64,000 nucleotides of DNA from an uncultured bacterium. GTDB lineage: Bacteria; Spirochaetota; UBA4802; JAGODF01. Where the stretch lies: contig CAKZSV010000031.1 of assembly GCA_937921485.1 (NCBI GenBank), positions 6,437-70,436 of the forward strand. Direction: 5' to 3'. The translations under genes were made by a program, and so were the position numbers. Numbering within the stretch: position 1 is the stretch's first letter; each line of letters starts with the position of its first letter. Under the pieces are notes generated by a model, which did not search any database, was not told where the DNA came from, and worked only from the letters and a program-made list of their open reading frames with translations. This document shows positions 1-56,435 of this stretch, one piece after another.

Positions 1-892
1 CTGAAGGGCGAAATATATCCGCGCATGCCGACTGTCGATCGAACATAGTCGTATTCAGATCCAAGGAAACCGCGGCTGATTTCAAATGCGTAATCGATGT
101 AGAAACCATTCTTGGGGTCGGGCTCGAAATCGCGCATGTCGATTGCCACTCCAGCGCGCGCGAAGCTCGTCCAGCCGCCGTCGAACCCGGTTGGCCTCAC
201 CTGCGAAAGCAGCGTAGGCTGTGTCTGCGTGTAAGAGTCACCGCCAAAGAGGCCCATCTCGAATTCCCGGTTATCCCAGGGATCGATATCCACCCGACGC
301 ACCTGATAGCCTAAGAGAAACCGCAAGAAATCAAAGTTGCGGTATATGTCGATCGAAAATTTCGGAGCTGTGATGGTATAGTTATTATATTTATAATTGG
401 CGTAGTTATTTGCTTTCAGGACTTCATCCTGATAGTCCTTATATGTATCGTATTCCTTGCCGCCATAGGTTAATGGATTTTTTGTTGTATCCGCTCCCTG
501 ACCGAAAAAGTTTGCATTCAGTTTTTTTTCAAAAACCACCGATGTCTTCACGCGAAAATCGGAACCGAAAACTTTAAACTGGTCGATGTTGAATTCATGA
601 TATTGCCAGCCAGCCGTGGTTGCGAAATACTGAATGTACATCTGCGTGAAATACGGCGCGTATGCAAAATCAGGATCGCTTTTCGAGCCGTTATTGTACA
701 TATACAGCCGAATCCCATACCCAAGACCGGTATCGCTGGAAAAGTTGACCAGCGGCAATCCGGTCGGATACCAGCCTTCACGCTTTTTCGCTAAGTCCTC
801 ATCGCTCATCCGCGCCGCAGACATGGCATTATCAGAAAGCACGACAAAAAGCGCGCACAACCCGACGAAAATCACTAACAAAGCTCTCCTCA
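1..892 (-). CDS. Secreted or outer-membrane protein, 3' end truncated by the window edge. Tyr/Gly/Asn-rich, beta-barrel-like composition.
   Basis: The reverse complement of 850-892 reads ATG AGG AGA GCT TTG TTA GTG ATT TTC GTC GGG TTG TGC GCG (MRRALLVIFVGLCALFVV), a signal peptide. The frame stays open to position 1. It is absent from the ORF table because there is no stop codon in the window. Confidence 0.5.
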
Positions 893-5465: not shown

Positions 5466-6532
5466 AAAAAACACGGTACATATCCCTTGCGCTGTTTGCC
5501 GCCGGAATCGTCGCCTGTCAGCTGATTTTCACCGCTCTCGGCACGGATTATCTCCTCATTCAGCTTACGATGTCTGCATATTATGCACTTGTGGTCATTG
5601 GCCTCTCACTTCTGATGGGATATGCGGGGCAGATATCTTTAGGGCATGCAGCCTTTTTTGCGCTCGGCGGATATCTCACCGCGGTTTTTTCCACCAACCA
5701 GCTTCAAGAAGTCGTATCGCATGAAATGCTTACCAGGCTTTCCCGCATCGGCATTGTATATTCTTCTGACGCGCATGACGCATTGTACCGATTGCATCCC
5801 GCGCTTTCTCTTCCAACTGTCATAATTGTCACCATTATCATTGCAATCATCATCGGCATTCCCATCCTCCGCCTCAAGGGTCATTATCTTTCGATGGCAA
5901 CTCTCGGATTCGGCATCATCCTTTACCGAATTTTTTTAGGAACAAAAGTTTTTGGTGAAGCGGATGGGATTTCAAATGTTGCGCCTTTTGATATCCCCGG
6001 ATTTTTCCCAATCGGCGGAGAATCTTCCTTTCGAGTGCCGAATTATTATTTCGCGTGGTTTCTTGTCATTATCGCGTTAGTGCTTCTTCTAAACATCATT
6101 GATTCGCGCGTTGGCAGGGCTCTCCGCGCAATTCACGACAGCGAGGAAGCCGCGAGCGCGATGGGTGTTGACACGGGAAGGTATAAGCTCATCGTATTCA
6201 TCATCTCCGCGCTTTTAGCCGCTATCGGTGGTTTTTTCATGACACATTACAATGCCGGCATAGGCCCATCAGAAGCAGGCATTATGAAATCCGTCCGCTA
6301 TGTGTCGATAGTCGCCGTGGGCGGAATGGCAAATCTGTGGGGATGCCTTATCATGGGTGTGGTGCTGAATTATTTATCCCTGCGCGGGTATTTCGGTTCG
6401 TATGATGATGCCGTCTTCGGGGCATTGCTTATTGCCATCATGGTGTTCGCACCGAACGGCATATTTAAAAAGGAAATTTTTGATAAAATTCGCCACTTCG
6501 TGAGCAGGATACCATGCCGATTTTCGAAGTAG
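5462..6532 (+). CDS. livM: Branched-chain amino acid ABC transporter permease (LivM type).
   Basis: Multi-TM permease. It overlaps livH by 4 nt and is followed by two ABC ATPases. Confidence 0.85.
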   Translation: MKKTRYISLALFAAGIVACQLIFTALGTDYLLIQLTMSAYYALVVIGLSLLMGYAGQISLGHAAFFALGGYLTAVFSTNQLQEVVSHEMLTRLSRIGIVYSSDAHDALYRLHPALSLPTVIIVTIIIAIIIGIPILRLKGHYLSMATLGFGIILYRIFLGTKVFGEADGISNVAPFDIPGFFPIGGESSFRVPNYYFAWFLVIIALVLLLNIIDSRVGRALRAIHDSEEAASAMGVDTGRYKLIVFIISALLAAIGGFFMTHYNAGIGPSEAGIMKSVRYVSIVAVGGMANLWGCLIMGVVLNYLSLRGYFGSYDDAVFGALLIAIMVFAPNGIFKKEIFDKIRHFVSRIPCRFSK

Positions 6533-13692: not shown

Positions 13693-14688
13693 ATGAAAAA
13701 GAAAATTGCTCTTGCGGTACTGCTGATTGCAGTAATTGCCTATACGGTACACTATAACTCTTGCCTTCCTTCCTATGAGTACACCGAGACCGCACTTCCC
13801 GCGAGTTTCGATGCATATTATGCGGAGCGCCTTGCGCAAAGCGCGGCATTGCACGCACGCCCTCGCAATGAAGAGCGCCTTGTACGTTACGCGCCGGGAA
13901 AAACGCCCGTGGCGATTCTCTACATTCATGGATACGGTGCTAGCCGGGCAGAAGGCGAATATGTCCTGGATAAAATCGCTGCACAGCTTAAAGCAAACAC
14001 CTATTATCTTCGCCTGCCCGGACATGGCACCAATAAAGAAGACCATAAAAACGCAACTCCGAAAGATCACCTGGATACTGCCATCACCGCACTTCGCATG
14101 ATGGATAAACTTGGCGAAAAAACCATTGTGGTAGGTACAAGCATGGGAGGGCTTATTGCAACCTATCTTGCGGCACAGTATCCCGAAAAAATGGCTGGCG
14201 TTGTGCTGGTTTCGCCTTTTTATAACTTCCCCGGTGCAGTAACAAGGCTTGTAAATCACTATCCGGTATTCAGGCTTTTCGTCGCCCTCAATCCAGTGCG
14301 CGTGAGCTCTCATCCAGTTCCTCCGGAAGAGGATAACTGGACAAAATACTGGTATCGAGAACAATATTTTATTTCTGGCAAACAGCTTATCGGGCTTGCG
14401 CGTATGATTGCCCGGGACGAGGTATTCGAAAAAGTCAGCATCCCCGTTCTTTTGCTCTATTATTATAAAGACGAAACGCATGAGGACAATACCGCATCGG
14501 TGTCGCACATGAAACTCGCCTTTGCGCATTTCGGAAAAGCGAAATCCCCCCATCCGCTGAACCGAGCCGTAGCAGTTGCCGAAGGCTCACATGTGCTGAT
14601 GAGCAAATACAGCAAAACAGATGAGAGGCTTGTGATTGCGGAAACGGTCGATTTCATTAAAAAAGCTGCAGGATTGCCTGCGAAATAA
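13693..14688 (+). CDS. Alpha/beta-hydrolase fold esterase or lipase with a signal peptide.
   Basis: GxSxG nucleophile elbow (GTSMGG) and HGYGAS oxyanion region. The ATG at 13693 has a GAGGTG RBS. The table ORF starts at an upstream GTG at 13684. Confidence 0.8.
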   Translation: MKKKIALAVLLIAVIAYTVHYNSCLPSYEYTETALPASFDAYYAERLAQSAALHARPRNEERLVRYAPGKTPVAILYIHGYGASRAEGEYVLDKIAAQLKANTYYLRLPGHGTNKEDHKNATPKDHLDTAITALRMMDKLGEKTIVVGTSMGGLIATYLAAQYPEKMAGVVLVSPFYNFPGAVTRLVNHYPVFRLFVALNPVRVSSHPVPPEEDNWTKYWYREQYFISGKQLIGLARMIARDEVFEKVSIPVLLLYYYKDETHEDNTASVSHMKLAFAHFGKAKSPHPLNRAVAVAEGSHVLMSKYSKTDERLVIAETVDFIKKAAGLPAK

Positions 14689-14690
14689 AT

Positions 14691-14811
14691 AAGGGAACTT
14701 CTAAAAACTGTTTTAAAGGATGTTCCCTTGTGGGCACAATATATAGGTAAAAACCGCTTTCTTTGATACTCATTTTAAAGATGAAAGCGGTTTTTAGAGG
14801 TGCCCATAATT
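14691..14811. repeat. Copy A of a ~120 bp structured interspersed element (candidate miniature-inverted-repeat transposable element (MITE) or structured small RNA).
   Basis: About 95% identical to 55356-55474. Internal hairpins: AAGGGAAC…GTTCCCTT (8 bp), and TGGGCAC…GTGCCCA enclosing AAAACCGCTTTC…GAAAGCGGTTTT (12 bp). It starts 3 nt after the hydrolase stop codon. Confidence 0.6.
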
Positions 14812-21279: not shown

Positions 21280-22896
21280 TCAGCCATTTATTTTTTTCCT
21301 AAAACCCTGAGGCGATTCGCCGGTACATTTCTGGAACACGCGATAGAACGTGGGAAGGCTTTCAAATCCGACCGCGAACGCAATGCTGGCAATGCTGTTG
21401 TCGGGATCGGCAAGCAGTTCCTGCGCTTTGCGGATTCTCACTTCGTTTAAATATTCACCTGTTTTCTTTCCGGTATATTGCTTGAAGAGCTTGCCAAAGT
21501 AGTCGGCATTCATTCCCACTTCATCTGCAAGTGATTCGCGCGTGATGTCTTCGGCGAATTTTTCTTCGATGATGCGGAGTGCTATTTTTAATTTTTCTTC
21601 AGTTTCGGAGCCGATTCTGGACTTTTTAGCTGTCCCGGTAGTTTGATCGCGCCGTTCGGTACTTTCAACGCGCTTTTTCAATTCAACAAAACGGCAGTGC
21701 ATGATATAGGCGATGCCGATGATGAGGAACAAATACGCATATCCTGAAAGGCTGATGAAATTGTACATCGCACGGTTAACCAGAATGTCATTTATGAGCG
21801 TCAAAGTCAGAATGATGAATGCCGCCAGAAGAAAAACGAATTCTCTTCGGTTCCGCAACCTGCGTACAACAACATAAAACGAATATATCACAGGATAGAG
21901 CCACGTAGGCTGAATAATGTTCTTCAAAACCCAATTCCAGACGAGAGGGTTATTGCTCACCGTGACGATTATCACACCTGAAAGAGTTATCGCATGAAAG
22001 ATATAATGAAAAATGTTTCGTTTTCGCGCCGTATAATACGCCATAAACTCAAGAAACATTGAAAAAATCAGGAAAAGAACGATATATTCTAACTTTTTCA
22101 TCACAAGAAAATTGTCGGAAATGAGATATTTAATCTGCGTCCGAAAGAAAAAATACACCGCCGAAAGCATGGTGGCCAGGGAAAAAAAGAGATTGTCTCT
22201 CTCAACTGCATGAAGAAAAAATATAATACCGAAATAAAGACTCACGGCTAAATAGATAACAACAAAAAACATCGAAAAGAACTCACGGGAAAGCAAATCC
22301 CGCTGAAGCTGCATAAACGGACCTATGCGAAATTCACCGGTATACGGGCCTGACGGCGATGGAAAAAGCGAAGCCACTCTGAGGGCAAAGAGATTTACCG
22401 CACCAGGACGAATAAGAATGGTGGGTATTTCATAGACTCGAATTTTATCATAACAGGATCTTCGATTGGGGGGAAAAGCGCCGGAAGATGCAATTTTAAC
22501 ACCGTTGAAATACAACTCATCGACATCGCTGATGATGCCAAGCTGAATGCCGAGGCTGTGCGCGGGAAGCCTTGAGGGAAAGCGCACTGGAATGCGATAC
22601 CAGCATACCCCCTCCCATCCGGGAAAAACTTTCGTCCAGTCGGAAGGAAGCGGAATCACCTGCCAGGTGCTATCATCGAAAGAGAGGCGCGCGTATTCGG
22701 GATTATCGCCCTTTTGTATGCGCACGATTTTCATTTGAGAAAAAGCAATTATTTTATCAAATTCCTCCAGTGATAGCATGGGAACATCTGCGTTCGGCGC
22801 CGATTGAAGCAGAGCCATTAGCGGTGCAACAACAAAGAGTATTTTCATTTTCTTTATAATACGCATCATTATCTCATCAATTGCATGTGAAAACAC
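21280..22896 (-). CDS. 7TM-DISM (7TMR-DISMED2 + 7TM) membrane sensor fused to an AraC-family HTH transcriptional regulator.
   Basis: Signal peptide, an extracellular beta-rich domain, seven hydrophobic helices, then a C-terminal AraC HTH (…IASIAFAVGFESLPTFYRVFQKCTGESP). The probable start is the internal Met at about 22848. Confidence 0.75.
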   Translation of the reverse strand: MFSHAIDEIMMRIIKKMKILFVVAPLMALLQSAPNADVPMLSLEEFDKIIAFSQMKIVRIQKGDNPEYARLSFDDSTWQVIPLPSDWTKVFPGWEGVCWYRIPVRFPSRLPAHSLGIQLGIISDVDELYFNGVKIASSGAFPPNRRSCYDKIRVYEIPTILIRPGAVNLFALRVASLFPSPSGPYTGEFRIGPFMQLQRDLLSREFFSMFFVVIYLAVSLYFGIIFFLHAVERDNLFFSLATMLSAVYFFFRTQIKYLISDNFLVMKKLEYIVLFLIFSMFLEFMAYYTARKRNIFHYIFHAITLSGVIIVTVSNNPLVWNWVLKNIIQPTWLYPVIYSFYVVVRRLRNRREFVFLLAAFIILTLTLINDILVNRAMYNFISLSGYAYLFLIIGIAYIMHCRFVELKKRVESTERRDQTTGTAKKSRIGSETEEKLKIALRIIEEKFAEDITRESLADEVGMNADYFGKLFKQYTGKKTGEYLNEVRIRKAQELLADPDNSIASIAFAVGFESLPTFYRVFQKCTGESPQGFRKKING

Positions 22897-22907
22897 CTAT
22901 CGTCGTT

Positions 22908-24374
22908 TCACCGCTTTGAAAAAAGCATTCGGTGCTGTTCTATCAGCGAGCGTTTCGTTTGCGCCAGCCTGTCCGAAAGGCTCACTTTATACATATGAGG
23001 ATTCAAAAGACGTCGGTAGGTAGCATCGAGCGCTTGAATTTGCGCGGCACACCGGTTTCGCGCATCAGCAAGCGAAGGCAGACCATCCACGACCTTCCCC
23101 TTCACCATGACGGGAAGCAGAAGCGTTTCGGCATATCCATAATCATCCATCACAAATCCTGCAAAATCAGATATCGGATGATTGAAACGCAGCGGTTTTT
23201 TTCTCTCGATATCTGCCTGCAGTTCATCAGTTTCTTCCTCCAGATAGAGAAGGTCCGCCTTCATCTGCCCGTCTTCGCCATAGACCCGCATGATGTTTTT
23301 CACGCCAGGGTTGGTCACCTTCTCCGGTTGATTTGAAAGCTTGATGCACGGTTCCCATGTTCCGCGTTTCCATCGTGCCACAATTTTATACACGCCGGGA
23401 AGCGCAGGCTCTCCCCATCCTGTTACCATGCGCGTTCCCACCCCCCATGCGTCGATGGGGCAGCGGCTATTGCGAAGGTGTTCGATGATCCATTCATCCA
23501 TATCGCTCGATACAAAAATTTTTACCTCTGGAAGGCCTGCATCATCGAGCATCTTTCGAGCCGCTTTGCTGAGGTACTCCAGATCGCCGCTGTCGATGCG
23601 GATTGCCATGAGCTTTGGATTTTTGCTCTTCAGTTCACGGAATACCTCGATTGCATTGGGAACTCCCGAACGGAGCGTATCATAGGTATCTACCAGAAGC
23701 ACCGGTGCTTCCGGATATTGCGCAGAATATTTTTTAAACGATTCGAGTTCGGAATCAAAACTCATCACCCAGCTATGTGCCATGGTGCCGCTGACCGGTA
23801 TGCCGAAAACTTTTCCCGCCAGCGTGTTCGAGGTTGCCGACGCTCCTCCAACAAACGCAGCCCTGGAAGCAGAAAGTGCTCCATCCGGCCCATGCGCTCG
23901 CCGAAGTCCAAACTCAAGCACCGGCAATCCCCCTGCGGCATCCACCACCCGGGATGTCTTTGTTGCGATGAGGCTTTGAAAATTCACATAATTAAGCAAT
24001 AAACTCTCGATGATCTGCACCTCAAGAAGCGTACCTTCAACGCGTACAAGCGGTTCGTTGGGAAATGCAAGTGTGCCTTCAGCCAGCGAGTATATGGTTC
24101 CTTCGAAGTGAAAATTCTTTAAATATTCCGTGAATTTATTTTGAAAAATTTTCTGTTTTTCGAGAAACGCAATATCATCATCGCTGAAACGGAAATTTTC
24201 AAGCTCCTTCAAAAACGGCACGATGCCGGCACACACCGCATATCCTCCGCTAAACGGCTGATGGCGGAAAAAAAGCTCAAAGACCGCACGAGCCTCCGGC
24301 GAGGCGGCAAAATATCCCTGCATCATCGTCAGTTCATAGAAATCGGTGCACAGCGCTGAAATCCTTCCAGTCAT
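22908..24374 (-). CDS. pncB: Nicotinate phosphoribosyltransferase.
   Basis: 488-aa NAPRTase-family sequence (…GTMAHSWVMSF…). Its start overlaps the pncA stop (ATGA). Confidence 0.85.
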   Translation of the reverse strand: MTGRISALCTDFYELTMMQGYFAASPEARAVFELFFRHQPFSGGYAVCAGIVPFLKELENFRFSDDDIAFLEKQKIFQNKFTEYLKNFHFEGTIYSLAEGTLAFPNEPLVRVEGTLLEVQIIESLLLNYVNFQSLIATKTSRVVDAAGGLPVLEFGLRRAHGPDGALSASRAAFVGGASATSNTLAGKVFGIPVSGTMAHSWVMSFDSELESFKKYSAQYPEAPVLLVDTYDTLRSGVPNAIEVFRELKSKNPKLMAIRIDSGDLEYLSKAARKMLDDAGLPEVKIFVSSDMDEWIIEHLRNSRCPIDAWGVGTRMVTGWGEPALPGVYKIVARWKRGTWEPCIKLSNQPEKVTNPGVKNIMRVYGEDGQMKADLLYLEEETDELQADIERKKPLRFNHPISDFAGFVMDDYGYAETLLLPVMVKGKVVDGLPSLADARNRCAAQIQALDATYRRLLNPHMYKVSLSDRLAQTKRSLIEQHRMLFSKR

Positions 24375-24982
24375 AACGCACCCGATTCTACAATACGAAT
24401 TCCCGCTTCACGCATGGAAGCAATCACCTTTGTAAGAGAACCCTCCGGTACATCGATTCCCCTGCACGCGTCGATAATGACGGCCGTTTTAAACCCGATC
24501 ATGTGCGCATCCATTGCGCTGTAGTACACACAATAATCGGTAGCAAGACCGCACACAAATACTTCTGTGGTACCAATGGAATTCAAATAACCATCAAGTC
24601 CAGTTTTAGTTTTTTTATCGTTTTCTAAAAATGCCGAATAGGAATCGATATCGGATGACGTGCCTTTGCGCACAATGAGATCAACCAGCGTCGTGTTTAA
24701 ATCCGGATGAAAATCCGCTCCCCGCGAGCCCTGCACGCAGTGGTCGGGCCAGAGCGTCTGGCGATAGCCGTTTAGCTCAATCTCGTCGAAAGGTTTTTTC
24801 CCTTTGTGATTCGAAGCAAAAGAACTATGGTCGGCCGGATGCCAGTCCTGCGTCGCCACCACGCGGTTGAATTTCCAGATTATCGAATTGATAACCGGCA
24901 CCACTTCGTTGCCGCCGCCCACGGCAAGCGCTCCTCCGGGACAGAAATCGTTCTGGACATCAATAATCAAGAGAACTTTCAT
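24371..24982 (-). CDS. pncA: Nicotinamidase / pyrazinamidase (isochorismatase family).
   Basis: MKVLLIIDVQNDF start, the catalytic D…K…C arrangement (CGLATDYCV), and metal-binding His (WPDHC). The table ORF extends 15 codons upstream to 25027. Confidence 0.8.
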   Translation of the reverse strand: MKVLLIIDVQNDFCPGGALAVGGGNEVVPVINSIIWKFNRVVATQDWHPADHSSFASNHKGKKPFDEIELNGYRQTLWPDHCVQGSRGADFHPDLNTTLVDLIVRKGTSSDIDSYSAFLENDKKTKTGLDGYLNSIGTTEVFVCGLATDYCVYYSAMDAHMIGFKTAVIIDACRGIDVPEGSLTKVIASMREAGIRIVESGAL

Positions 24983-25085
24983 ATTCTGCCACCTCCCTTT
25001 ACACAGCGTGCATCGTATTATTGCCAACTGCTAATGTATCAGCTTAGGGGAATACATGTCTATCGTTTTATTATATTCCGCACAA

Positions 25086-26264
25086 TTATTTCACTGCGCC
25101 TTTCGCGCGCAAATCGGATATTGTTGCATCGGAATAACCGAGCCGATGTAAAATTTCATCAGTGTGCGAACCCATTTCGCATCCGGCCATTTTCGCCACA
25201 TATGTACCCGATGTAAACATGAGGCCACTGCCAAGCTGGCGAAATTCATTATTCTTTGAATCCCGCACGCTCACAATCATTGAGCGCTCACACAGGGGGG
25301 GAGCATTAATTGCTTCGCCAAGCGTCCTCACAGGCTCAACGCACGCGTCGATTGCACTGAAGACTTCTATCCAGTGCGAAAGCGGTTTTTCAGCAATGCG
25401 GCACGCAACTTCGCGTTTCATTTCGATCATCTCCTCTGCGCTTACTACGCCTTTTTCGATCACACCACTCATGCCGATGGCATTTAGAAATGCAGCTAAA
25501 AATTTCGGTTCAACCGGTCCTACTGAAAGGTAGCGCTTATCTGCAGTTTGATAAAAATCGTACAGCGAACCTCCGTTGAATAATTCGTTTTCCGCCTCCG
25601 GTTCGGATGCGCCGCCCAGGAATTGGGATGTTTGAAATGCAGTCATCGCAAAAACGCCGTCGAAGATGGAAATATCGATGTAATCACCCTCACCGGTGCG
25701 CAATCGCCGGATATACGCCGCCATGACTGCAATGCAGAGGTTTTTTGATCCGCTGCCGATATCCGCAATCTGTATGCCGCTGAGTGTCGGCCCCGTTGCT
25801 TTTTTGCCCGAAAAGGATTCCGCGCCCGAAAGCGCCATGTAGTTGATATCGTGCCCCGCGCGATGTGCATAGCTTCCTGTTTGTCCGTATCCGGTGAGAG
25901 AGCAGTAAATGAGCGCGGGGTTGATATCTCGAAGCCGTTCATACCCAAGCCCGAGCTTTTCCATCACCCCGGGACGAAATTGTTCCACCACGATATCGTA
26001 TTCGCGGACAAGCGCATATACCGCTTTCCGCGCCTCTTCGTGCTTGAGATTGAGCGCAAGCGAGCGCTTACCCCTGTTGATGTGCGCATAGGCTGCAGAA
26101 ATGCCGTGAACGAGAGGTGGCACCATGCGCATGAGATCCGGATTTTCTGGATTTTCCACCTTGATGATGTCAGCGCCAAGGTCGGCCAGCATCATGGTGC
26201 CGAATGGTCCGGGCAGCAAATAGGAAAAATCCAGAATTTTCATTCCGTCAAGAGGGGGATGCAT
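25086..26264 (-). CDS. CoA-transferase family III protein (CaiB/BaiF/formyl-CoA-transferase-like).
   Basis: MKILDFS…GPFGTMMLADLGADIIKVE N-terminal signature of family III CoA transferases. The start was chosen at an ATG preceded by GGAGGA. The table start at 26297 is a TTG. Confidence 0.8.
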   Translation of the reverse strand: MHPPLDGMKILDFSYLLPGPFGTMMLADLGADIIKVENPENPDLMRMVPPLVHGISAAYAHINRGKRSLALNLKHEEARKAVYALVREYDIVVEQFRPGVMEKLGLGYERLRDINPALIYCSLTGYGQTGSYAHRAGHDINYMALSGAESFSGKKATGPTLSGIQIADIGSGSKNLCIAVMAAYIRRLRTGEGDYIDISIFDGVFAMTAFQTSQFLGGASEPEAENELFNGGSLYDFYQTADKRYLSVGPVEPKFLAAFLNAIGMSGVIEKGVVSAEEMIEMKREVACRIAEKPLSHWIEVFSAIDACVEPVRTLGEAINAPPLCERSMIVSVRDSKNNEFRQLGSGLMFTSGTYVAKMAGCEMGSHTDEILHRLGYSDATISDLRAKGAVK

Positions 26265-26495
26265 TATTCCTCCGTGATGCGAACATTCACCGTCCAATAT
26301 GCATAGAAGACATTATTGGCAGCTTTTCCGCAAGAAAAAAAGCTCGTGAAGGTGCAAATCTCTTAAGTTCATGATTTTTTCTTCTATATGTTATTGCGCA
26401 GTTTTTTTATCACACCAAAAAAAACGATAGACGAATTACAAAAAAAATACTATAATTAAATTACTCAAAAGGAGATTGCGAAAGAACATAATTTT

Positions 26496-28634
26496 ATGGA
26501 CGAAAAAGCTCTTTACAGGCAATTTTTCAAATACGGCGGGATGGTCATCGGTTTCAATCTCACGCTGACCTTCATTATTCTTTCCATTGCGTACCCGATG
26601 TTTTCCGACAGAAGGCTGTTGGCGTTTTTTTTCATCGCACTCGTACTATGTTTTGTTTTGCTTAATCTATATTATTATTTTATTCTCAGGGTGGTCATTA
26701 CGCCCCTTCGCGATCTTGCGAAAAATTTCGATATAGCGAAGAAACGATTTGAAATCACGCCGCAGAGAACCTTCATCGCCAATATTCTCACCATCGTCCT
26801 GCTCTACGTGCCCGCCATTCCGTGTATGTACTTTTTCTTCGGCTATACGAATTTATATTTTCACGCGTTCGTTCTGTTCATAAATATCTTCGTATTTCTA
26901 TACCTCGGATATAATTCTGCTGGAGTGTGGTACACCCGCACCTACCCGCTGGGACGCTTCGGCATCCCTATCGTCGTACAGGGACTTGGCAGCAAAATCA
27001 TCAGCCTGGTTTTTCCGACGATTCTGCTTGCATCAGTCTTTATTTCAGTTATGATATACCTCGCCGGTCAGATGACCATCCGCAACGGCATCAATGCGCG
27101 CGTACGCGACAATCTCACCGCCATCGTACGGACACACGAGCGTGAAGGCTCTTTTTCGTATGATGAATTGCCGCCGGTTTTTTCCGAATATGAAGGTTTA
27201 CTTTTCATCACCGATTCCCAGGGAACCCTTCGCGTAGACCATTCCCAATACACAGCCGGGACATCATTATCAGGAATTATTCGCAGAGGAAATCAATCTG
27301 TTTCGCTCTATGAAGCCTCCAGAGATGCTCTTGCCAATCCGGGAGGAACTGCCGGTACTACGGTTCATGGCGTGTTTGAAGGCAAACCGGCAGTGATGTT
27401 CATCGAACATATACGCAATCTGGACAGCTATGCAATCGCCATCTTTTACGATGAAGTGCTCTACCGGCCATTTTACCGCTCGATATTCCTGCAATCATTC
27501 ATCCTTTTCCTGATAAACATCCTTCTCGGACTAATCGTATATCGAAAACTTCTGAAAACCGCGCGTTCTCTGGGACAAATTATTCCCGCGCTCACCAAAG
27601 CGGCGAAAGGCGACCTGAGCGAGGAAATTAAACTCGTAAAAACGAGGGATATTCTTGAAGATTTTACCCGCACGTTTACTAATTTCAAAAAACTTGTGGC
27701 CGATTTCGTCGGAAGCGCCCGCGATCTGGCAGCCATGCTTTTAGCAGAGGCTGAAGCAATTTCAGAATCGGGCTCGCAGATAAAAAAACTTTCCGAGCAA
27801 AACGCGGAGCTGCTTGGGAAAACCACCGATGGGCTCAAGCGAATAGCTGAAGCATTTACCGATATTGCAGAAAAATCCGGCATTCAGCATTCCAACATTT
27901 CCGAACTCGATGCGACAATTTCCTACATCAACAGGGCGATGGGTGTGCTGGCGGATGATGCACAGAAAGTCATCACTTCGATGAAGCAGGTTGAAGAAGG
28001 CGCTATCAGCGGAACCGAACTGGTGCGCGAGGCGTATGACCACATGAACAAAACTGATGAACTTTATCGGGGCGTGTTCAACATCATCCAGATGATTTCC
28101 GAAATAGCCGATCAGGTGAATCTCCTTTCCCTGAACGCATCTATTGAAGCCGCACGTGCGGGAGAATACGGAAGAGGTTTTGCCGTCGTGGCGGAAGAGA
28201 TATCGAAGCTCGCGGACCGAACGGGCGCAAACGTCAAAGAGATTACTGGTCTCATCAATGCGGGCAATGACGAAATACAGAAAAATATACAGATCATCTC
28301 GCATCTGCGCGATTCTTATGAGTCGATCGTTGACAGCATTGAAAATACCGGTGTGACCATCACCGGCTTCATTGATATGATTGGCAAGCACGGCGACGAT
28401 ATCAGAAAAACGCACGGCAAGATCGAATCCATTAAAGACTTTGCGAAAAACCTTTCGGATTCCACCAGCAATGAAAAAGAAAATACCATCCGCATGTTTG
28501 AAAACATCGAAAGCGTAAATAAAAACGCCGATGAGTTCGTCAGCCATTCTTCCGCTCTTGCCGGTTCATCCGACCAGTTGAAGCAGATGGCACATTCCCT
28601 CCTGGAAAAACTGCAGTTTTTCAAGCTTAATTGA
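26496..28634 (+). CDS. Methyl-accepting chemotaxis protein (multi-TM N-terminus, HAMP, MCP signalling domain).
   Basis: Six N-terminal hydrophobic helices, a HAMP-like segment, and the highly conserved MCP core ([32 protein letters not shown]). Confidence 0.85.
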
Positions 28635-28728
28635 ACATCAACTTTCCGTTCTTTTCTTCCACCCTCCAGCTGACGATAATAAAGAAAAGCATCACTCAAA
28701 TCCGTGCAAGCGATGAAGGAGCATTGCG

Positions 28729-29337
28729 GTGAAAATAAAATTTTTCGCGATAGCATTGGTATCTCTTTTTTTCATTATTTCAATCTTTCAGATGTTTCCC
28801 TTTCCCCCTTTCGCGGATGATGTATTCCCCCTCTACAGGTCGGGCTATTTCAGAGAGCTCGACAGACAGTTTGAAGTAATCGCCGATGCGTTCGTGTCGA
28901 TTAAAACAATGTCGCGCCCGGCATATGCATGGATTTTTATTGAAGATATAAAAAACAAACACGGCATTGAAATACGGGTGTACAATTCCCGATCTGAACT
29001 TATTCGCACTCCCGGAGAGGTGGCACCGGGCATGGATGCTACAGTTATACGAATGAGCACAATGCCTTCTCCATCACCGGTTTCTGAAATACGAGGCAAT
29101 CGCTATTTTTCAGCAATACCAATGACGGCGGCGCCTCGCTGCCGTTTTTGTCATACGCAACAGGAAAATACTATTATCGGAATCATCACTTTTGAACGGT
29201 CATTTGATGCATCGACTTTCTATGGGCGTGAGCGCAGTGTCATATTCGGAATTATCGCTTTGATTTCAGCATTCATTCTCCTGATACTAATCCGATGGGA
29301 ACCGTACAGAAGAATTAAAGAAATATTTGACAAATGA
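28729..29337 (+). CDS. Membrane-anchored c-type heme (CxxCH) protein, possibly a Tll0287/DUF3365-like sensor domain protein.
   Basis: N-terminal signal/anchor, a CRFCH heme-binding motif, and a C-terminal TM helix. It lies 95 nt downstream of the MCP on the same strand. Confidence 0.5.
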   Translation: MKIKFFAIALVSLFFIISIFQMFPFPPFADDVFPLYRSGYFRELDRQFEVIADAFVSIKTMSRPAYAWIFIEDIKNKHGIEIRVYNSRSELIRTPGEVAPGMDATVIRMSTMPSPSPVSEIRGNRYFSAIPMTAAPRCRFCHTQQENTIIGIITFERSFDASTFYGRERSVIFGIIALISAFILLILIRWEPYRRIKEIFDK

Positions 29338-29440
29338 CAGTTGCCTGCGCAATGGTTGGCTTCGGTTTAATGTCCTTCATGCGGTCCATTAACTACTTCC
29401 GCCGTTGTGCGGATGATAAAAGTGTAACATTGAGTGACAC

Positions 29441-31525
29441 ATGGCAAACGAACAAAACAATAAAACCCTTATAATCGTTGAATCGCCCACAAAAGCGCGG
29501 ACAATCACGAAATACCTTGGCAACAAATTCATCGTGCTTTCTTCAATGGGGCATATCATTGATTTGCCAAAATCGAGGCTGGCAATTGACATTGCGCACG
29601 ATTTCCGCCCGGAATACATCACCGTGCGCGGAAAGGCAAAGCTCCTCAATGAACTTAAAAAAAATGCCTCGCTCGCTTCCAGCGTGCTGCTCGCGACCGA
29701 CCCCGACCGGGAGGGCGAAGCGATATCATGGCATCTCCGGAATGCACTGGCTGAAAAAAACAGCAATATCCATCGAGTCGAATTCCATGAAATCACCGAT
29801 TCAGCTATCAAAGAAGCAATAGATCATCCCCGCGATATAGACCTGAATCTGGTCAATGCACAACAGGCACGGCGTGTTTTAGACCGCCTGGTGGGATATC
29901 ATCTCAGCCCCATTCTCTGGAAAAAAGTAAAAAAAGGGCTTTCAGCGGGAAGAGTGCAATCGGTCGCGCTTGCCATCATCTGTGAACGCGAAAAGGAAAT
30001 AGAAGCTTTCGTTCCTGCGGAATACTGGTCGCTCGACGCTCTGCTCAATCACAATCATAAGAAATTTCGCGCATCTCTCATATCATTCAGAGGAAATAAA
30101 GAATACCTCAAAAAAAAGGAACACGCGGATGAAGTCATCGCTCATCTGAACGATAAAACATTCAAAGTTATCTCGGTTACCAAAAAAGAACGGAAACGCA
30201 GACCGCTTCCTCCCTACATCACCAGCAAGCTTCAGCAGGATGCGGCCAACCGCCTCGGTTTTACATCTGCAAAAACGATGATGGTCGCGCAGCAGCTCTA
30301 TGAAGGTGTTGATATTACCGGCGAAGGCCCGGTTGGACTCATCACGTACATGCGTACGGATTCAACCAGAATTTCACCCATTGCCATGGAAGGGTTGAGA
30401 AACTATATTTCTGCGCATTATCCGCCCGAATACCTTCCCGAAACGCCAAACACCTATATGAATAAAAAAGGTGCTCAGGACGCTCATGAAGCGATACGCC
30501 CCACAGATGTAGCCCGAGATCCGGAATCAATAAAAAATGATCTCACTTCCGACCAATACAAGCTCTACCGGCTCATCTGGAAGCGGTTCGTGTCTTCGCA
30601 GATGACCGGCGAGGTTTCACTTGCCACCTCGGTTATTCTGAAAGCCGGAGACTGTGAATTTCGCGCATCAGGAAGCATCGTGCTTTTTGACGGATTCACC
30701 GCCGTGGAAAAAGAGGAAAAAACCGGGAGAGATACTCTGCCCGAACTCAAGGAGGGCGACACCCCAAAGCTTATGGAGCTTGTTCCCGAACAACACTTCA
30801 CCACTCCTCCTCCCCGCTATAACGATGCATCGCTGGTAAAGTTTCTGGAGGAATCGGGCATCGGCCGCCCATCTACCTATGCGCCTACGATAAATACGCT
30901 CATCAAACGATACTATGTCATCCGTCACGGCAAACAGCTCGTCCCGACGGCGCTCGGAAGAATCGTGAATGATATCCTTGTAAAATTTTTTCCGGAACTC
31001 ATCTCAATCGGATTTACCTCATCCATGGAAGAGAAGCTTGACCTTATCGAAGATGCGAAATCAGAATGGGTCGGCATGATACGTGACTTTTATTCTCCCT
31101 TTATTGAGACAGTGGAACATGCCGAAAAACATATTGAGGAGATAAAAGGCGTCCTCGATGAAGACACTGACTTCACATGCGAGAAATGCGGCAGGCCGAT
31201 GAAGAAAAAACTCGGCAAATACGGCTTTTTTCTTGCGTGTTCCGGATTTCCGGAATGCAGAAACGCCCTCCCCATTCCGCTGGGAAAGTGCCCGATAGCC
31301 GGTTGCGGCGGCAATGTGGTGAAACGCTCCTCAAAGAAAGGGCGTCCTTTCTATTCCTGCACGCGATATCCCGATTGCACCTTCATCACGCGTGACGTGC
31401 CTGCCGAAAAAGATTGTCCGCAGTGCGGCAGCGCGCTTTTCGTGAAGAAGAAAAAGGGAGAAGGCGAAACAGTTTTCTGCCTTAAAGAAGGATGCGGGTA
31501 CCACATCGACATTCTGAATGAGTGA
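29441..31525 (+). CDS. topA: DNA topoisomerase I with C-terminal zinc-ribbon repeats.
   Basis: TOPRIM region (LIIVESPTKARTI; ATDPDREGEAI), active-site region (GLITYMRTDSTR), and three C-terminal Cys4 zinc ribbons. Confidence 0.95.
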   Translation: MANEQNNKTLIIVESPTKARTITKYLGNKFIVLSSMGHIIDLPKSRLAIDIAHDFRPEYITVRGKAKLLNELKKNASLASSVLLATDPDREGEAISWHLRNALAEKNSNIHRVEFHEITDSAIKEAIDHPRDIDLNLVNAQQARRVLDRLVGYHLSPILWKKVKKGLSAGRVQSVALAIICEREKEIEAFVPAEYWSLDALLNHNHKKFRASLISFRGNKEYLKKKEHADEVIAHLNDKTFKVISVTKKERKRRPLPPYITSKLQQDAANRLGFTSAKTMMVAQQLYEGVDITGEGPVGLITYMRTDSTRISPIAMEGLRNYISAHYPPEYLPETPNTYMNKKGAQDAHEAIRPTDVARDPESIKNDLTSDQYKLYRLIWKRFVSSQMTGEVSLATSVILKAGDCEFRASGSIVLFDGFTAVEKEEKTGRDTLPELKEGDTPKLMELVPEQHFTTPPPRYNDASLVKFLEESGIGRPSTYAPTINTLIKRYYVIRHGKQLVPTALGRIVNDILVKFFPELISIGFTSSMEEKLDLIEDAKSEWVGMIRDFYSPFIETVEHAEKHIEEIKGVLDEDTDFTCEKCGRPMKKKLGKYGFFLACSGFPECRNALPIPLGKCPIAGCGGNVVKRSSKKGRPFYSCTRYPDCTFITRDVPAEKDCPQCGSALFVKKKKGEGETVFCLKEGCGYHIDILNE

Positions 31526-54888: not shown

Positions 54889-55257
54889 TTAAACAGTGGT
54901 CGGCGTTTGGAAACGCTTATATATCTGTATGATGATAAATCCTAAAAGCGTGGTATAATCGGTAATCGTGGCTGACTCAACTGAAAATATTTTATCCATT
55001 ACCAGCATACCGCTTACTACCAGCAGCAGCACAACGCCCGCTAACGCACGTGATGATCTTTCCATTATATGCTCAATCACGAACTCGTTCTCTGCTCCGG
55101 GTTTTTGAATAAAAGAAAGTATCATGAATGCAATTGAAACGATTGCCTGAACAACATATACCAGATTTGCCACCACCTCAATCGTTGAAGGAACTGATGG
55201 CACCAGGTAAAAAGTCGATGAAAGGATAATGCCCACAAACACGTTTCCTAAATACAA
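54889..55257 (-). CDS. Hypothetical polytopic membrane protein. The 5' end appears truncated; the first in-frame start is a TTG at 55257.
   Basis: Three to four TM helices. The frame continues upstream without a start codon through 55258-55365 (…YKLSAALYVYGALAALCAFIIIPAEWRRLLAWLL) until a stop inside repeat copy B. Confidence 0.45.
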   Translation of the reverse strand: MYLGNVFVGIILSSTFYLVPSVPSTIEVVANLVYVVQAIVSIAFMILSFIQKPGAENEFVIEHIMERSSRALAGVVLLLVVSGMLVMDKIFSVESATITDYTTLLGFIIIQIYKRFQTPTTV

Positions 55258-55355
55258 AAGCCACGCGAGTAGACGCCGCCATTCTGCAGGAATAATTATA
55301 AATGCACATAATGCTGCAAGAGCCCCGTATACATATAAAGCGGCAGATAATTTAT

Positions 55356-55474
55356 AAGGGAACTTCTAAAAACTGTTTTAAAGGATGTTCCCTTGTGGGC
55401 ACAATATATATGATAAAACCGCTTTCTTTGATGCTAATTTTAAAGATGAAAGCGGTTTTTAGAGGTGCCCATAA
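55356..55474. repeat. Copy B of the ~120 bp structured interspersed element.
   Basis: About 95% identical to 14691-14811, in the same orientation. Substitutions fall only in loop or unpaired positions (ATAGGTAAAAACC vs ATATGATAAAACC; GATACTCATTTT vs GATGCTAATTTT). Confidence 0.6.
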
Positions 55475-55667
55475 TAAGATCCAAAATCATCCCGTGCAGC
55501 CTGAATTCACTTTTTTCTTGACAAATTTCAATAGAAAATCGAATTGTATTATAGTAAATACAAATATACAAATAAGTATTCAGCCGGTTGTTATTTCTGT
55601 AGTGAAATCGATATCGAAAATTGTGCAATAATTATTCTGAGATTAATTCGCTATCGTTACCGCGTTA

Positions 55668-55703: not shown

Positions 55704-56435
55704 ATGAAAATCAAACTCGACAACGCCCAGATACCCCTGCACTACCAGATTGCGGATTATCTTCTGGTGATGCTCGAAAAAGGCGAGCTTTCTTTCGACG
55801 AACAAATCCCGCCAGAGGAAGAACTCAGAGAACTTTTCGGCGTAAGCCGCACCACCGTCAGGCGCGCCATGGAGCATCTGCTCCATAAACGCATTGTGCA
55901 CCGAAAACAGGGAAAAGGATCGTTTTGGACTGAATCAGCAAAGGAGCTGAAAAATGAAAAACTTGCCGGATTAAACCGTCAGATTTTCAGCATTAACAAA
56001 GAAACGAAAGTGCGCGTACTTTCAAAACGAACTGAAAAATGCCGGGAGGATATTGCAGCACTTCTGAAATTACCCCCCGGCAGCGGTGTCGTCATTTTTG
56101 AACGCCTCAGACTGCTCAATGATAAACCGATGAGCTACACTACCAACTATTTACCCTTTAAAATCGGTTCGCGCATAAAAAAATCACATCTCGAAAAAAA
56201 GACCATGCTTGAAACCCTTGAGGATGTAGTAAAACTCGAGTTGGGCACCATCGAACATGAAGTAGAAATCACCCGCGCGAACTCCGAGATTTCGGAACTT
56301 TTACACATCCCCTCACTAAACCCGGTGCTCACCATACGGACATCGGTATTTGATAACGACGCCAGACCAATCGAAGTGGTATGGACGCATTTCGTAGAGC
56401 ATATGTATAAATTCAAAGTAGTGCTTGGAAGATGA
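55704..56435 (+). CDS. GntR-family transcriptional regulator (HutC subfamily with a UTRA effector domain).
   Basis: N-terminal winged HTH (ELFGVSRTTVRRAMEHL) plus a C-terminal UTRA-like domain (about 150 aa). Confidence 0.8.
   Translation: MKIKLDNAQIPLHYQIADYLLVMLEKGELSFDEQIPPEEELRELFGVSRTTVRRAMEHLLHKRIVHRKQGKGSFWTESAKELKNEKLAGLNRQIFSINKETKVRVLSKRTEKCREDIAALLKLPPGSGVVIFERLRLLNDKPMSYTTNYLPFKIGSRIKKSHLEKKTMLETLEDVVKLELGTIEHEVEITRANSEISELLHIPSLNPVLTIRTSVFDNDARPIEVVWTHFVEHMYKFKVVLGR

Follow-up and report, generated by a model that had tools for sequence, protein, structure and literature searches.

MITEs (miniature inverted-repeat transposable elements) are defined in prokaryotes as non-coding elements of 50-800 bp that have inverted-repeat ends of at least 10-15 bp and a target duplication, and among bacterial orders the Leptospirales reportedly hold the most of them, at a median of 154 per genome (PMC11602168). 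Comparable small repeats occur in the Bacillus cereus group, where a mechanism resembling site-specific recombination has been proposed for the bcr1 repeats (Okstad 2004; Kristoffersen 2011, both as summarised in PMC6542083). We examined a 64,000-nucleotide stretch of DNA (the window; positions 6,437 to 70,436 of contig CAKZSV010000031.1, assembly GCA_937921485.1) from an uncultured bacterium of the Spirochaetota, in which a short structured element is present twice, as copies A and B. A first-pass annotation of the window had offered three options for this element: a small RNA with a fold of its own, mobile DNA of the MITE or REP kind, or a module that binds protein or terminates transcription. 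Here we conclude that the two copies are very probably members of a non-autonomous, MITE-like family of mobile DNA. Support for the MITE option comes from the dispersed copies, the inverted-repeat ends, the duplication of a WTAA tetranucleotide, the empty sites and the deletion derivatives described below.

Results

Copy A (14689-14809) and copy B (55354-55474) lie on the same strand, measure 121 nt each with the flanking ATAA on both sides included, and differ by five substitutions (95.9% identity over 121 nt). The first-pass annotation had described a same-strand repeat of about 95% identity at 14691-14811 and 55356-55474; the description holds, and the coordinates were correct to within 2 nt. 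A repeat search identified the pair as the sole true repeat family within the window. A covariance model of the element scores copy A at 126.7 bits and copy B at 125.1 bits and finds no third copy in the window, where the next match reaches only 10 bits.

Occurrences in related genomes were then counted, and the element is not restricted to the two window loci. A first scan, of one genome per bacterial species, used the pattern AAGGGAAC-N(10-35)-GTTCCCTTGTGGGCAC and returned at least 82 loci in at least 13 assemblies, every listed locus belonging to a metagenome-assembled genome of the Spirochaetota/Leptospirales. At least 39 of these loci are in DAIUKG01 and at least 18 in CAZCYH01 ("uncultured Leptospira sp."), and one genome carries at least 40 copies. 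In these 82 loci, the covariance model recognises about 93 copies, some of them missed by the exact pattern. A second scan, of metagenomes, was anchored in the second hairpin and left hairpin 1 and the left flank unconstrained; it returned at least 120 metagenome loci, which brings the two scans together to more than 200. BLAST searches of plasmid and phage collections gave no match to the element. Four viral-contig matches to a 16-mer are attributable to chance, the covariance model finding no copy there. Loci and contigs retrieved for comparison with the window are designated below by L-numbers.

The ends of the element are precise. Among 139 distinct copies, similarity breaks off sharply between WTAA and GGGAAC on the left and between GTGCCC and WTAA on the right. 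The core thus delimited is 113 bp long, within the size range of MITEs, and is non-coding, being crossed only by short spurious open reading frames (ORFs). Its termini are imperfect inverted repeats of about 17 bp (GGGAACYTCTAWAAA at the left end and GGGCACCTCTAAAAA as the reverse complement of the right end), which match at 14-15 of 17 positions in the consensus sequences of all four subfamilies and are therefore of the length that defines MITE ends. Positions 14-17 of the ends change jointly at both ends between subfamilies, and the reverse strand of each copy scores about 30-39 bits against the covariance model. One copy departs from this arrangement: in L103 (~460-585, reverse strand) the left end is of the right-end type, with TTAT GGGCACCTCTAAAAAC in place of the usual ATAA GGGAACYTCT, which gives the copy two ends of the GGGCAC type. 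Recombination between two inverted copies may have produced it.

The core is flanked by ATAA on both sides in 119 of the 139 copies and by TTAA on both sides in 8; the flanks are mixed in 3 and read ATCG/ATCA in 1 (L186). The left and right WTAA covary (Fisher p = 2.5e-10), as a target duplication of 2-10 bp in a MITE should. Copies with TTAA/TTAA are spread over at least four sub-lineages and have sister copies with ATAA/ATAA, and this scatter indicates that the flank is taken from the target and not inherited. Judging from these comparisons, the WTAA direct repeat is a target-site duplication of 3 or 4 bp; the check for such duplications that had been proposed in the first-pass annotation thus gave a positive answer. 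About 6 nt on either side of the element are rich in A and T, and the flanks hold no longer motif. Targeting of the IS110 or bridge-RNA type was rejected on these grounds, as flanks that are only AT-rich provide no conserved 10-14-nt target.

Comparison with relatives revealed unoccupied sites. Window positions 22140-30066 are syntenic with L040 (CAZCYH010000002.1) at about 88% identity, and the copy in L040 sits where the window has one ATAA, which includes the TAA stop codon of the ORF at 25086..26297 (-). L085 and L086 have the matching hydrolase gene (protein 92% and 87% identical, respectively) but no copy A downstream of it, and the spacer behind this gene is 63 and 82 bp in these loci, respectively, vs. 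176 bp in the window. Copy B is likewise absent from the syntenic guaA-purE-GntR loci L212 and L213. The empty sites for A and B lie in diverged intergenic DNA and show absence but not a base-exact site; only the L040/window pair is near exact. Occupancy therefore differs at three loci between the window's genome and its relatives, as is characteristic of the dispersed, polymorphic insertions of MITEs.

Other copies bear traces of rearrangement and decay. L139 (reverse strand, ~795-1037) carries two near-identical copies as a head-to-tail dimer with one common ATAA, and the matching locus L051 (1015-1139) a single copy; the dimer indicates either reinsertion of the element into its own flanking target or a local tandem duplication. 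Some 70 nt further downstream, L139 and L051 each have another, older copy. Decay derivatives include one that consists of 40 bp of the ends only (L071), one of 84 nt without the inner hairpin (L008) and one of 248 bp with a foreign insert (L059), and further copies are truncated (L068, L082, L022). L083 and L214, two contigs assembled from short reads of the window's own sample, terminate inside copy B from both sides, and such contig breaks in short-read assemblies are explained by the repeat.

All 70 copies for which gene context was recorded are intergenic. Both neighbouring genes run in the direction of the element in 26 and against it in 18, whereas 17 copies lie between divergent and 9 between convergent genes. 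In eight copies (L012, L019, L039, L040, L055:1569, L062, L075 and L078), the left ATAA supplies the same-strand stop codon of the upstream gene. Since the TAA of the left flank is that stop, insertion occurred exactly at the stop codon, which was restored by the duplication. Copy A starts right behind a TAA stop codon (14686-14688) between convergent ORFs, in agreement with the first-pass annotation.

A position directly behind a stop codon and between convergent genes, as in copy A, and the eight flanks that serve as stop codons would suit a terminator or insulator kept by the host. In every subfamily an A-run precedes the inner hairpin and T5 follows it, and the hairpin might then act as a two-way intrinsic terminator. 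However, the 17 of 70 copies between divergent gene starts have nothing to terminate, which contradicts the option of a dedicated terminator, and in the 44 of 70 between same-direction genes the expression of the downstream gene would be blocked. Relatives also exist without the element at the same loci. The hairpin does possess a 12-bp stem followed by T5, but its loop is 21 nt or bulged, which departs from the usual 3-8 nt, and for this reason the terminator scan does not report it. Furthermore, the T-run belongs to the right terminal repeat and mirrors the left A-run, so that it is accounted for without termination. We consider it very improbable that termination is what maintains the family, though individual copies may be side-effect terminators, with copy A as a candidate.

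The element has a distinctive predicted fold. The stems named in the first-pass annotation are all present as placed, namely AAGGGAAC/GTTCCCTT, TGGGCAC/GTGCCCA and the 12-bp AAAACCGCTTTC/GAAAGCGGTTTT with its 21-nt loop. GTTCCCTT complements the left tip, and TGGGCAC together with the 5' arm of the inner stem complements the right end. Because each end has an internal complement, a single strand folds into two side-by-side hairpins and not into one long stem. In copy A, the first two pairs of hairpin 1 use the AA of the flanking ATAA. Folded as RNA, the + strands of the two copies have z-scores of -6.5 and -7.4 and the - strand about -6.3, and 0 of 200 shuffles folded as well; folded as DNA, the z-scores are about -7.2 to -7.7, with both strands alike. 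The central hairpin is modular, in that at least five unrelated stem sequences (AAAACCGCTTTC, AAATCAGGAGTT, AAATCAGGTTTT, AAATTAGATTTTT and CAGAATTTT) occur in the family, each with its own pairing partner.

At the tip of the inner hairpin, a GC-rich module of about 45 nt replaces the loop in L046:6684-6831, L078:4298-4447 and L059:5316-5566 (also in L192). Its sequence, AACCCCCAC..CAGGGGGAG..GAGGGGGT, is present in both DAIUKG subfamilies, which suggests exchange between elements or a second small element nested inside.

The first-pass annotation inferred selection on structure from the observation that substitutions between copies A and B fall only in unpaired positions. All five (14746, 14748, 14749, 14768 and 14771) do lie outside the stems it named, but those at 14748 and 14749 abolish a 2-bp extension of the inner stem that is possible in copy A. 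The chance that five substitutions miss the 54 paired positions of 121 is about 0.05; therefore, the two window copies alone prove nothing, and the evidence must be supplied by the wider family. Across 60 distinct copies, 96% of cells hold standard pairs, compared to 87.5% in shuffled and 39-56% in slid-partner controls. Both sides have changed in 11 of the 13 pairs of the inner stem, the sequence of which is wholly different between subfamilies yet retains its pairing. The invariance of hairpin 1 and of the outer stem of hairpin 2 is partly an ascertainment artefact, as the search patterns required both; inner-stem sites were never constrained. In the four subfamilies, 27% of sites are variable in the inner stem vs. 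53% of unpaired sites (p = 3e-4), and singleton substitutions number 0.22 per site in stems vs. 0.38 elsewhere (p = 0.047).

Compensated changes are also seen in the stems of two independently found copies. In L026 (3513-3628) the outer stem is doubly compensated, as TGGCTAC/GTAGCCA, and in L184 the stem of hairpin 1 contains a compensated change, AAGGAAAC/GTTTCCTT. Among broken pairs, G.T outnumbers A.C (37 vs. 18), which weakly suggests that folding takes place in the strand as written. From these comparative data, it appears that the fold is selected in some form. The earlier claim of structural selection is thus upheld, although on the strength of the wider family (inner-stem compensation and fewer stem substitutions) and not of the window pair.

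Selection on a fold raises the question of whether the copies are small structured RNA genes or cis-regulatory RNA modules that have been multiplied secondarily. A very stable predicted fold, covariation in the inner stem, stems that vary less than loops and more G.T than A.C mismatches would all be in keeping with this explanation, and the comparable bcr1 repeats of Bacillus cereus are reported to be transcribed. However, a search of the whole window against Rfam 15, a step proposed in the first-pass annotation, matched no family (0 matches at gathering score; around copy A, at a cutoff of E <= 10, the best has E = 1.1). The copies follow no orientation rule relative to genes, as they occur in all four gene orientations and in 17 of 70 cases between divergent gene starts, and the sole promoter-like match is weak and at chance frequency. 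In addition, precise boundaries, duplication of the target, unoccupied sites and deletion derivatives mark inserted DNA and not a gene family, and as DNA both strands fold equally well. A structured RNA therefore seems highly unlikely.

Several observations weigh against the conclusion that the family is an ordinary MITE moved by a transposase. The asymmetric ATAA is used in one orientation only: TTAT/TTAT occurs in 0 of 139 copies, those from the scan free of left-flank constraint included. Near-identical ends acted upon by a DDE transposase would usually be expected to insert in both orientations, which makes one-orientation use unusual for cut-and-paste transposition. No autonomous partner with the same ends was found in the window and about 1.5 Mb of flanking DNA, so that a trans-acting enzyme is purely something we infer. 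The compensatory differences represent about 5-6 subfamily-level events and not dozens of independent ones, and the conservation of stems within subfamilies could reflect host-level selection or hairpin-templated repair. Finally, the compensation in L026 and L184 shows that pairing itself matters, which is not predicted if the ends are simply two protein-binding sites. In the search for a partner, all loci were examined for single ends and for widely spaced pairs of ends, and the loci were compared for shared segments of 200 bp or more; neither comparison gave a candidate. The ORF next to the orphan left end in L022 was rejected, as it resembles a secreted protein and not a transposase.

Some of these features would be explained if the family were moved by a mechanism that reads hairpins and direction, either a single-strand HUH/Y1 transposase (of the IS200/IS605 or REP-associated RAYT type) for which the two fold-back hairpins are the recognition sites, or a site-specific recombinase acting on a circular junction. 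In the latter case, the junction ...GTGCCC-ATAA-GGGAAC... would present inverted arms around an asymmetric 4-bp core. Insertion is indeed orientation-specific beside a fixed asymmetric tetranucleotide, and the hairpins reach the tips of the element and use the flanking ATAA, pairing AA with an internal TT and A with T. The two stems resemble each other (GGGAAC/GTTCCC and GGGCAC/GTGCCC), both show compensated changes, and the 37 G.T vs. 18 A.C broken pairs hint at one folding strand. However, IS200/IS605 elements make no target duplication and their right tetranucleotide travels with the element, whereas here the left and right tetranucleotides vary jointly, as shown by the 8 copies with TTAA/TTAA and the one with ATCG/ATCA. 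That family is also without terminal inverted repeats, which are clear in the present one, and the hairpins here are terminal, starting 2 nt outside the core, with no subterminal spacer for a guide sequence in the manner of IS608. The orientation relative to local genes, 26 vs. 18, is weakly biased at most, and a GTAG-type head as in REP-type elements is missing. As for the recombinase, we know of no close precedent for a 4-bp core. On balance, mobility by either of these routes is distinctly unlikely.

There is also a slim but real chance that the MITE-like family is mobilised by an enzyme that is not an ordinary DDE transposase, one that reads both hairpins and the directional ATAA and still yields a 4-bp duplication. 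The AA and A of the target might then be recognised through base pairs formed with the TT and T that lie inside the element at the foot of each hairpin. If this were true, such an enzyme would match no described bacterial transposition pathway and the family would constitute a new class of small mobile element, with a mechanism possibly common to the unexplained bcr1-type repeats.

We also re-examined the surroundings of copy B, which the first-pass annotation had placed at the 5' end of a gene that it appeared to disrupt. The ORF in question (54889..55257, -) is open into copy B until a TAG 24 nt inside, and it gains only 12 codons and no start codon when copy B is removed in silico. Its product is hydrophobic, 117-122 aa long, and has no homologue besides itself among 5.8 billion proteins; the syntenic relatives (L212 and L213) have an unrelated 52-55-aa ORF in its place. 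Gene disruption is therefore unsupported, and the ORF may not be a real gene or may be lineage-specific. Copy B is located where this ORF and a GntR-family regulator gene (55704..56435) diverge. About 30 nt separate the end of copy B from a conserved promoter-like TTGACA box and the palindrome TTGTATTATAGTAAATACAA, with the copy on the upstream side. Both motifs (window 55500-55590) are kept in L212 and L213, where the GntR protein is 85% identical, and together they look like the regulator's own operator/promoter. An effect of copy B on the upstream region of the regulator is possible.

The otherwise collinear alignment of the window with L040 has a second break, at 26265-26493 vs. L040:4246-4422 (about 228 bp in the window vs. 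about 176 bp in L040), which is not the element according to the covariance model. Other short repeats are shared by loci of the same assemblies: L011:5525-5680 matches L026:3238-3393 (156 bp at 99%), L009:4297-4501 matches L066:2125-2327 (205 bp at 96%), and L032:4063-4620 matches L068:3784-4339 (559 bp at 92%), which suggests that these genomes harbour additional repeat families.

Table 1. Parts of the two copies and the unoccupied target site in the window.
Feature	Position	Strand	Basis
Copy A left flanking ATAA, target-site duplication	14689..14692	+	Left/right WTAA covariation, 139 copies
Copy A core GGGAAC...GTGCCC, 113 bp	14693..14805	+	126.7 bits; absent from matching intergenic region in L085/L086
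Copy A left terminal inverted repeat GGGAACTTCTAAAAACT	14693..14709	+	14-15/17 match to right-end reverse complement
Copy A hairpin 1, AAGGGAAC/GTTCCCTT	14691..14729	+	Arms 14691-14698 and 14722-14729; folds
Copy A hairpin 2, outer stem TGGGCAC/GTGCCCA	14731..14806	+	Arms 14731-14737 and 14800-14806
Copy A inner stem of hairpin 2	14750-14761 / 14783-14794	+	Perfect 12 bp AAAACCGCTTTC/GAAAGCGGTTTT, 21-nt loop
Copy A T-run within hairpin 2	14791-14795	+	Sequence
Copy A right terminal inverted repeat GGTTTTTAGAGGTGCCC	14789..14805	+	End comparison
Copy A right flanking ATAA, target-site duplication	14806..14809	+	WTAA covariation
Copy B left flanking ATAA	55354..55357	+	Sequence
Copy B core, 113 bp	55358..55470	+	125.1 bits; L212/L213 without copy
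Copy B hairpin 1	55356-55394	+	Fold
Copy B hairpin 2	55396-55471	+	Inner stem 55415-55426 / 55448-55459
Copy B right flanking ATAA	55471..55474	+	Sequence
Unoccupied target, single ATAA	25086..25089	-	Syntenic L040 (CAZCYH010000002.1) carries a copy there

Discussion

We propose that copies A and B arose by insertion into AT-rich intergenic DNA at WTAA (ATAA, less often TTAA), in one orientation and with duplication of the tetranucleotide. Movement would be in trans, by an enzyme encoded elsewhere in the genome, most simply a DDE-type transposase that binds both ends, and only elements retaining fold-back ends would be copied onward. Such a need for fold-backs would lead to stems being kept or compensated in spreading lineages and would leave loops free to drift. 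Any consequences for the host are probably incidental; in copy A, for instance, the inner hairpin with its A-run, stem and T-run may serve as a transcription terminator between the convergent genes.

The immediate consequence is for annotation. In genomes of uncultivated Leptospirales, the repeat should be masked as mobile DNA, with no small RNA calls and no read-through ORFs. Because insertion sites differ between genomes that are about 88% identical, the family appears to have been recently active, and since copies land in promoter and terminator regions and occasionally supply a stop codon, they are a plausible source of regulatory variation. The combination of inverted-repeat ends, an asymmetric target that is duplicated and used one way, and compensated stems makes the family a clean test case for how small non-autonomous elements are recognised. 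Its wider value for the study of mobile DNA depends on the mobilising enzyme being found. A literature search with the element's sequence strings, which did not extend to the supplements of MITE censuses, returned only an unrelated plant paper. Census supplements aside, the family is thus previously undescribed in the searched literature; the kind of element is known.

Among known systems, the palindrome-associated elements derived from IS200/IS605 and the REP/REPIN sequences share with the present family a hairpin at each end and a fixed orientation beside a fixed tetranucleotide. The latter property is evident here, as the flank is ATAA or TTAA in all save a few decayed copies and never TTAT/TTAT. 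However, IS200/IS605-derived elements have no terminal inverted repeats and no target duplication, and their hairpins are subterminal and work with guide sequences. Identity with REP/REPIN was rejected because a GTAG-type head is absent and because a 113-bp unit, in place of a 20-40-nt palindrome, has another architecture.

The Correia elements (CREE) of Neisseria are similar in being about 100-155 bp long with inverted-repeat ends and hundreds of intergenic copies, as outlined in the introduction of PMC11602168. They differ by a TA duplication, 26-bp inverted repeats, an IHF site and insertion in both orientations, none of which is seen here. As a by-product, Correia elements can act as promoters or terminators, and copies of the present family may do so too.

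Bacterial MITEs, those of the Leptospirales included, resemble the family in most respects: they are small and non-coding, with inverted-repeat ends, a short target duplication and tens of copies per genome, mostly intergenic and encoding no transposase, and they are known from the same bacterial order (PMC11602168). The family is set apart from them by its asymmetric target, which is used one way, and by ends that pair internally to form two hairpins. The bcr1-type repeats of the Bacillus cereus group, as portrayed in the summary given by PMC6542083, are about 100-400 bp long and confined to one bacterial group, where their copies number from tens to more than 100. They behave as mobile elements with no known transposase, and they have a short asymmetric AT-rich flank, TTTAT there and ATAA here. 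They differ from the present family in host phylum, flanking motif and length, and the two are likened by behaviour and not by sequence. By that measure, the bcr1-type repeats are the closest analogues of the family to which copies A and B belong.

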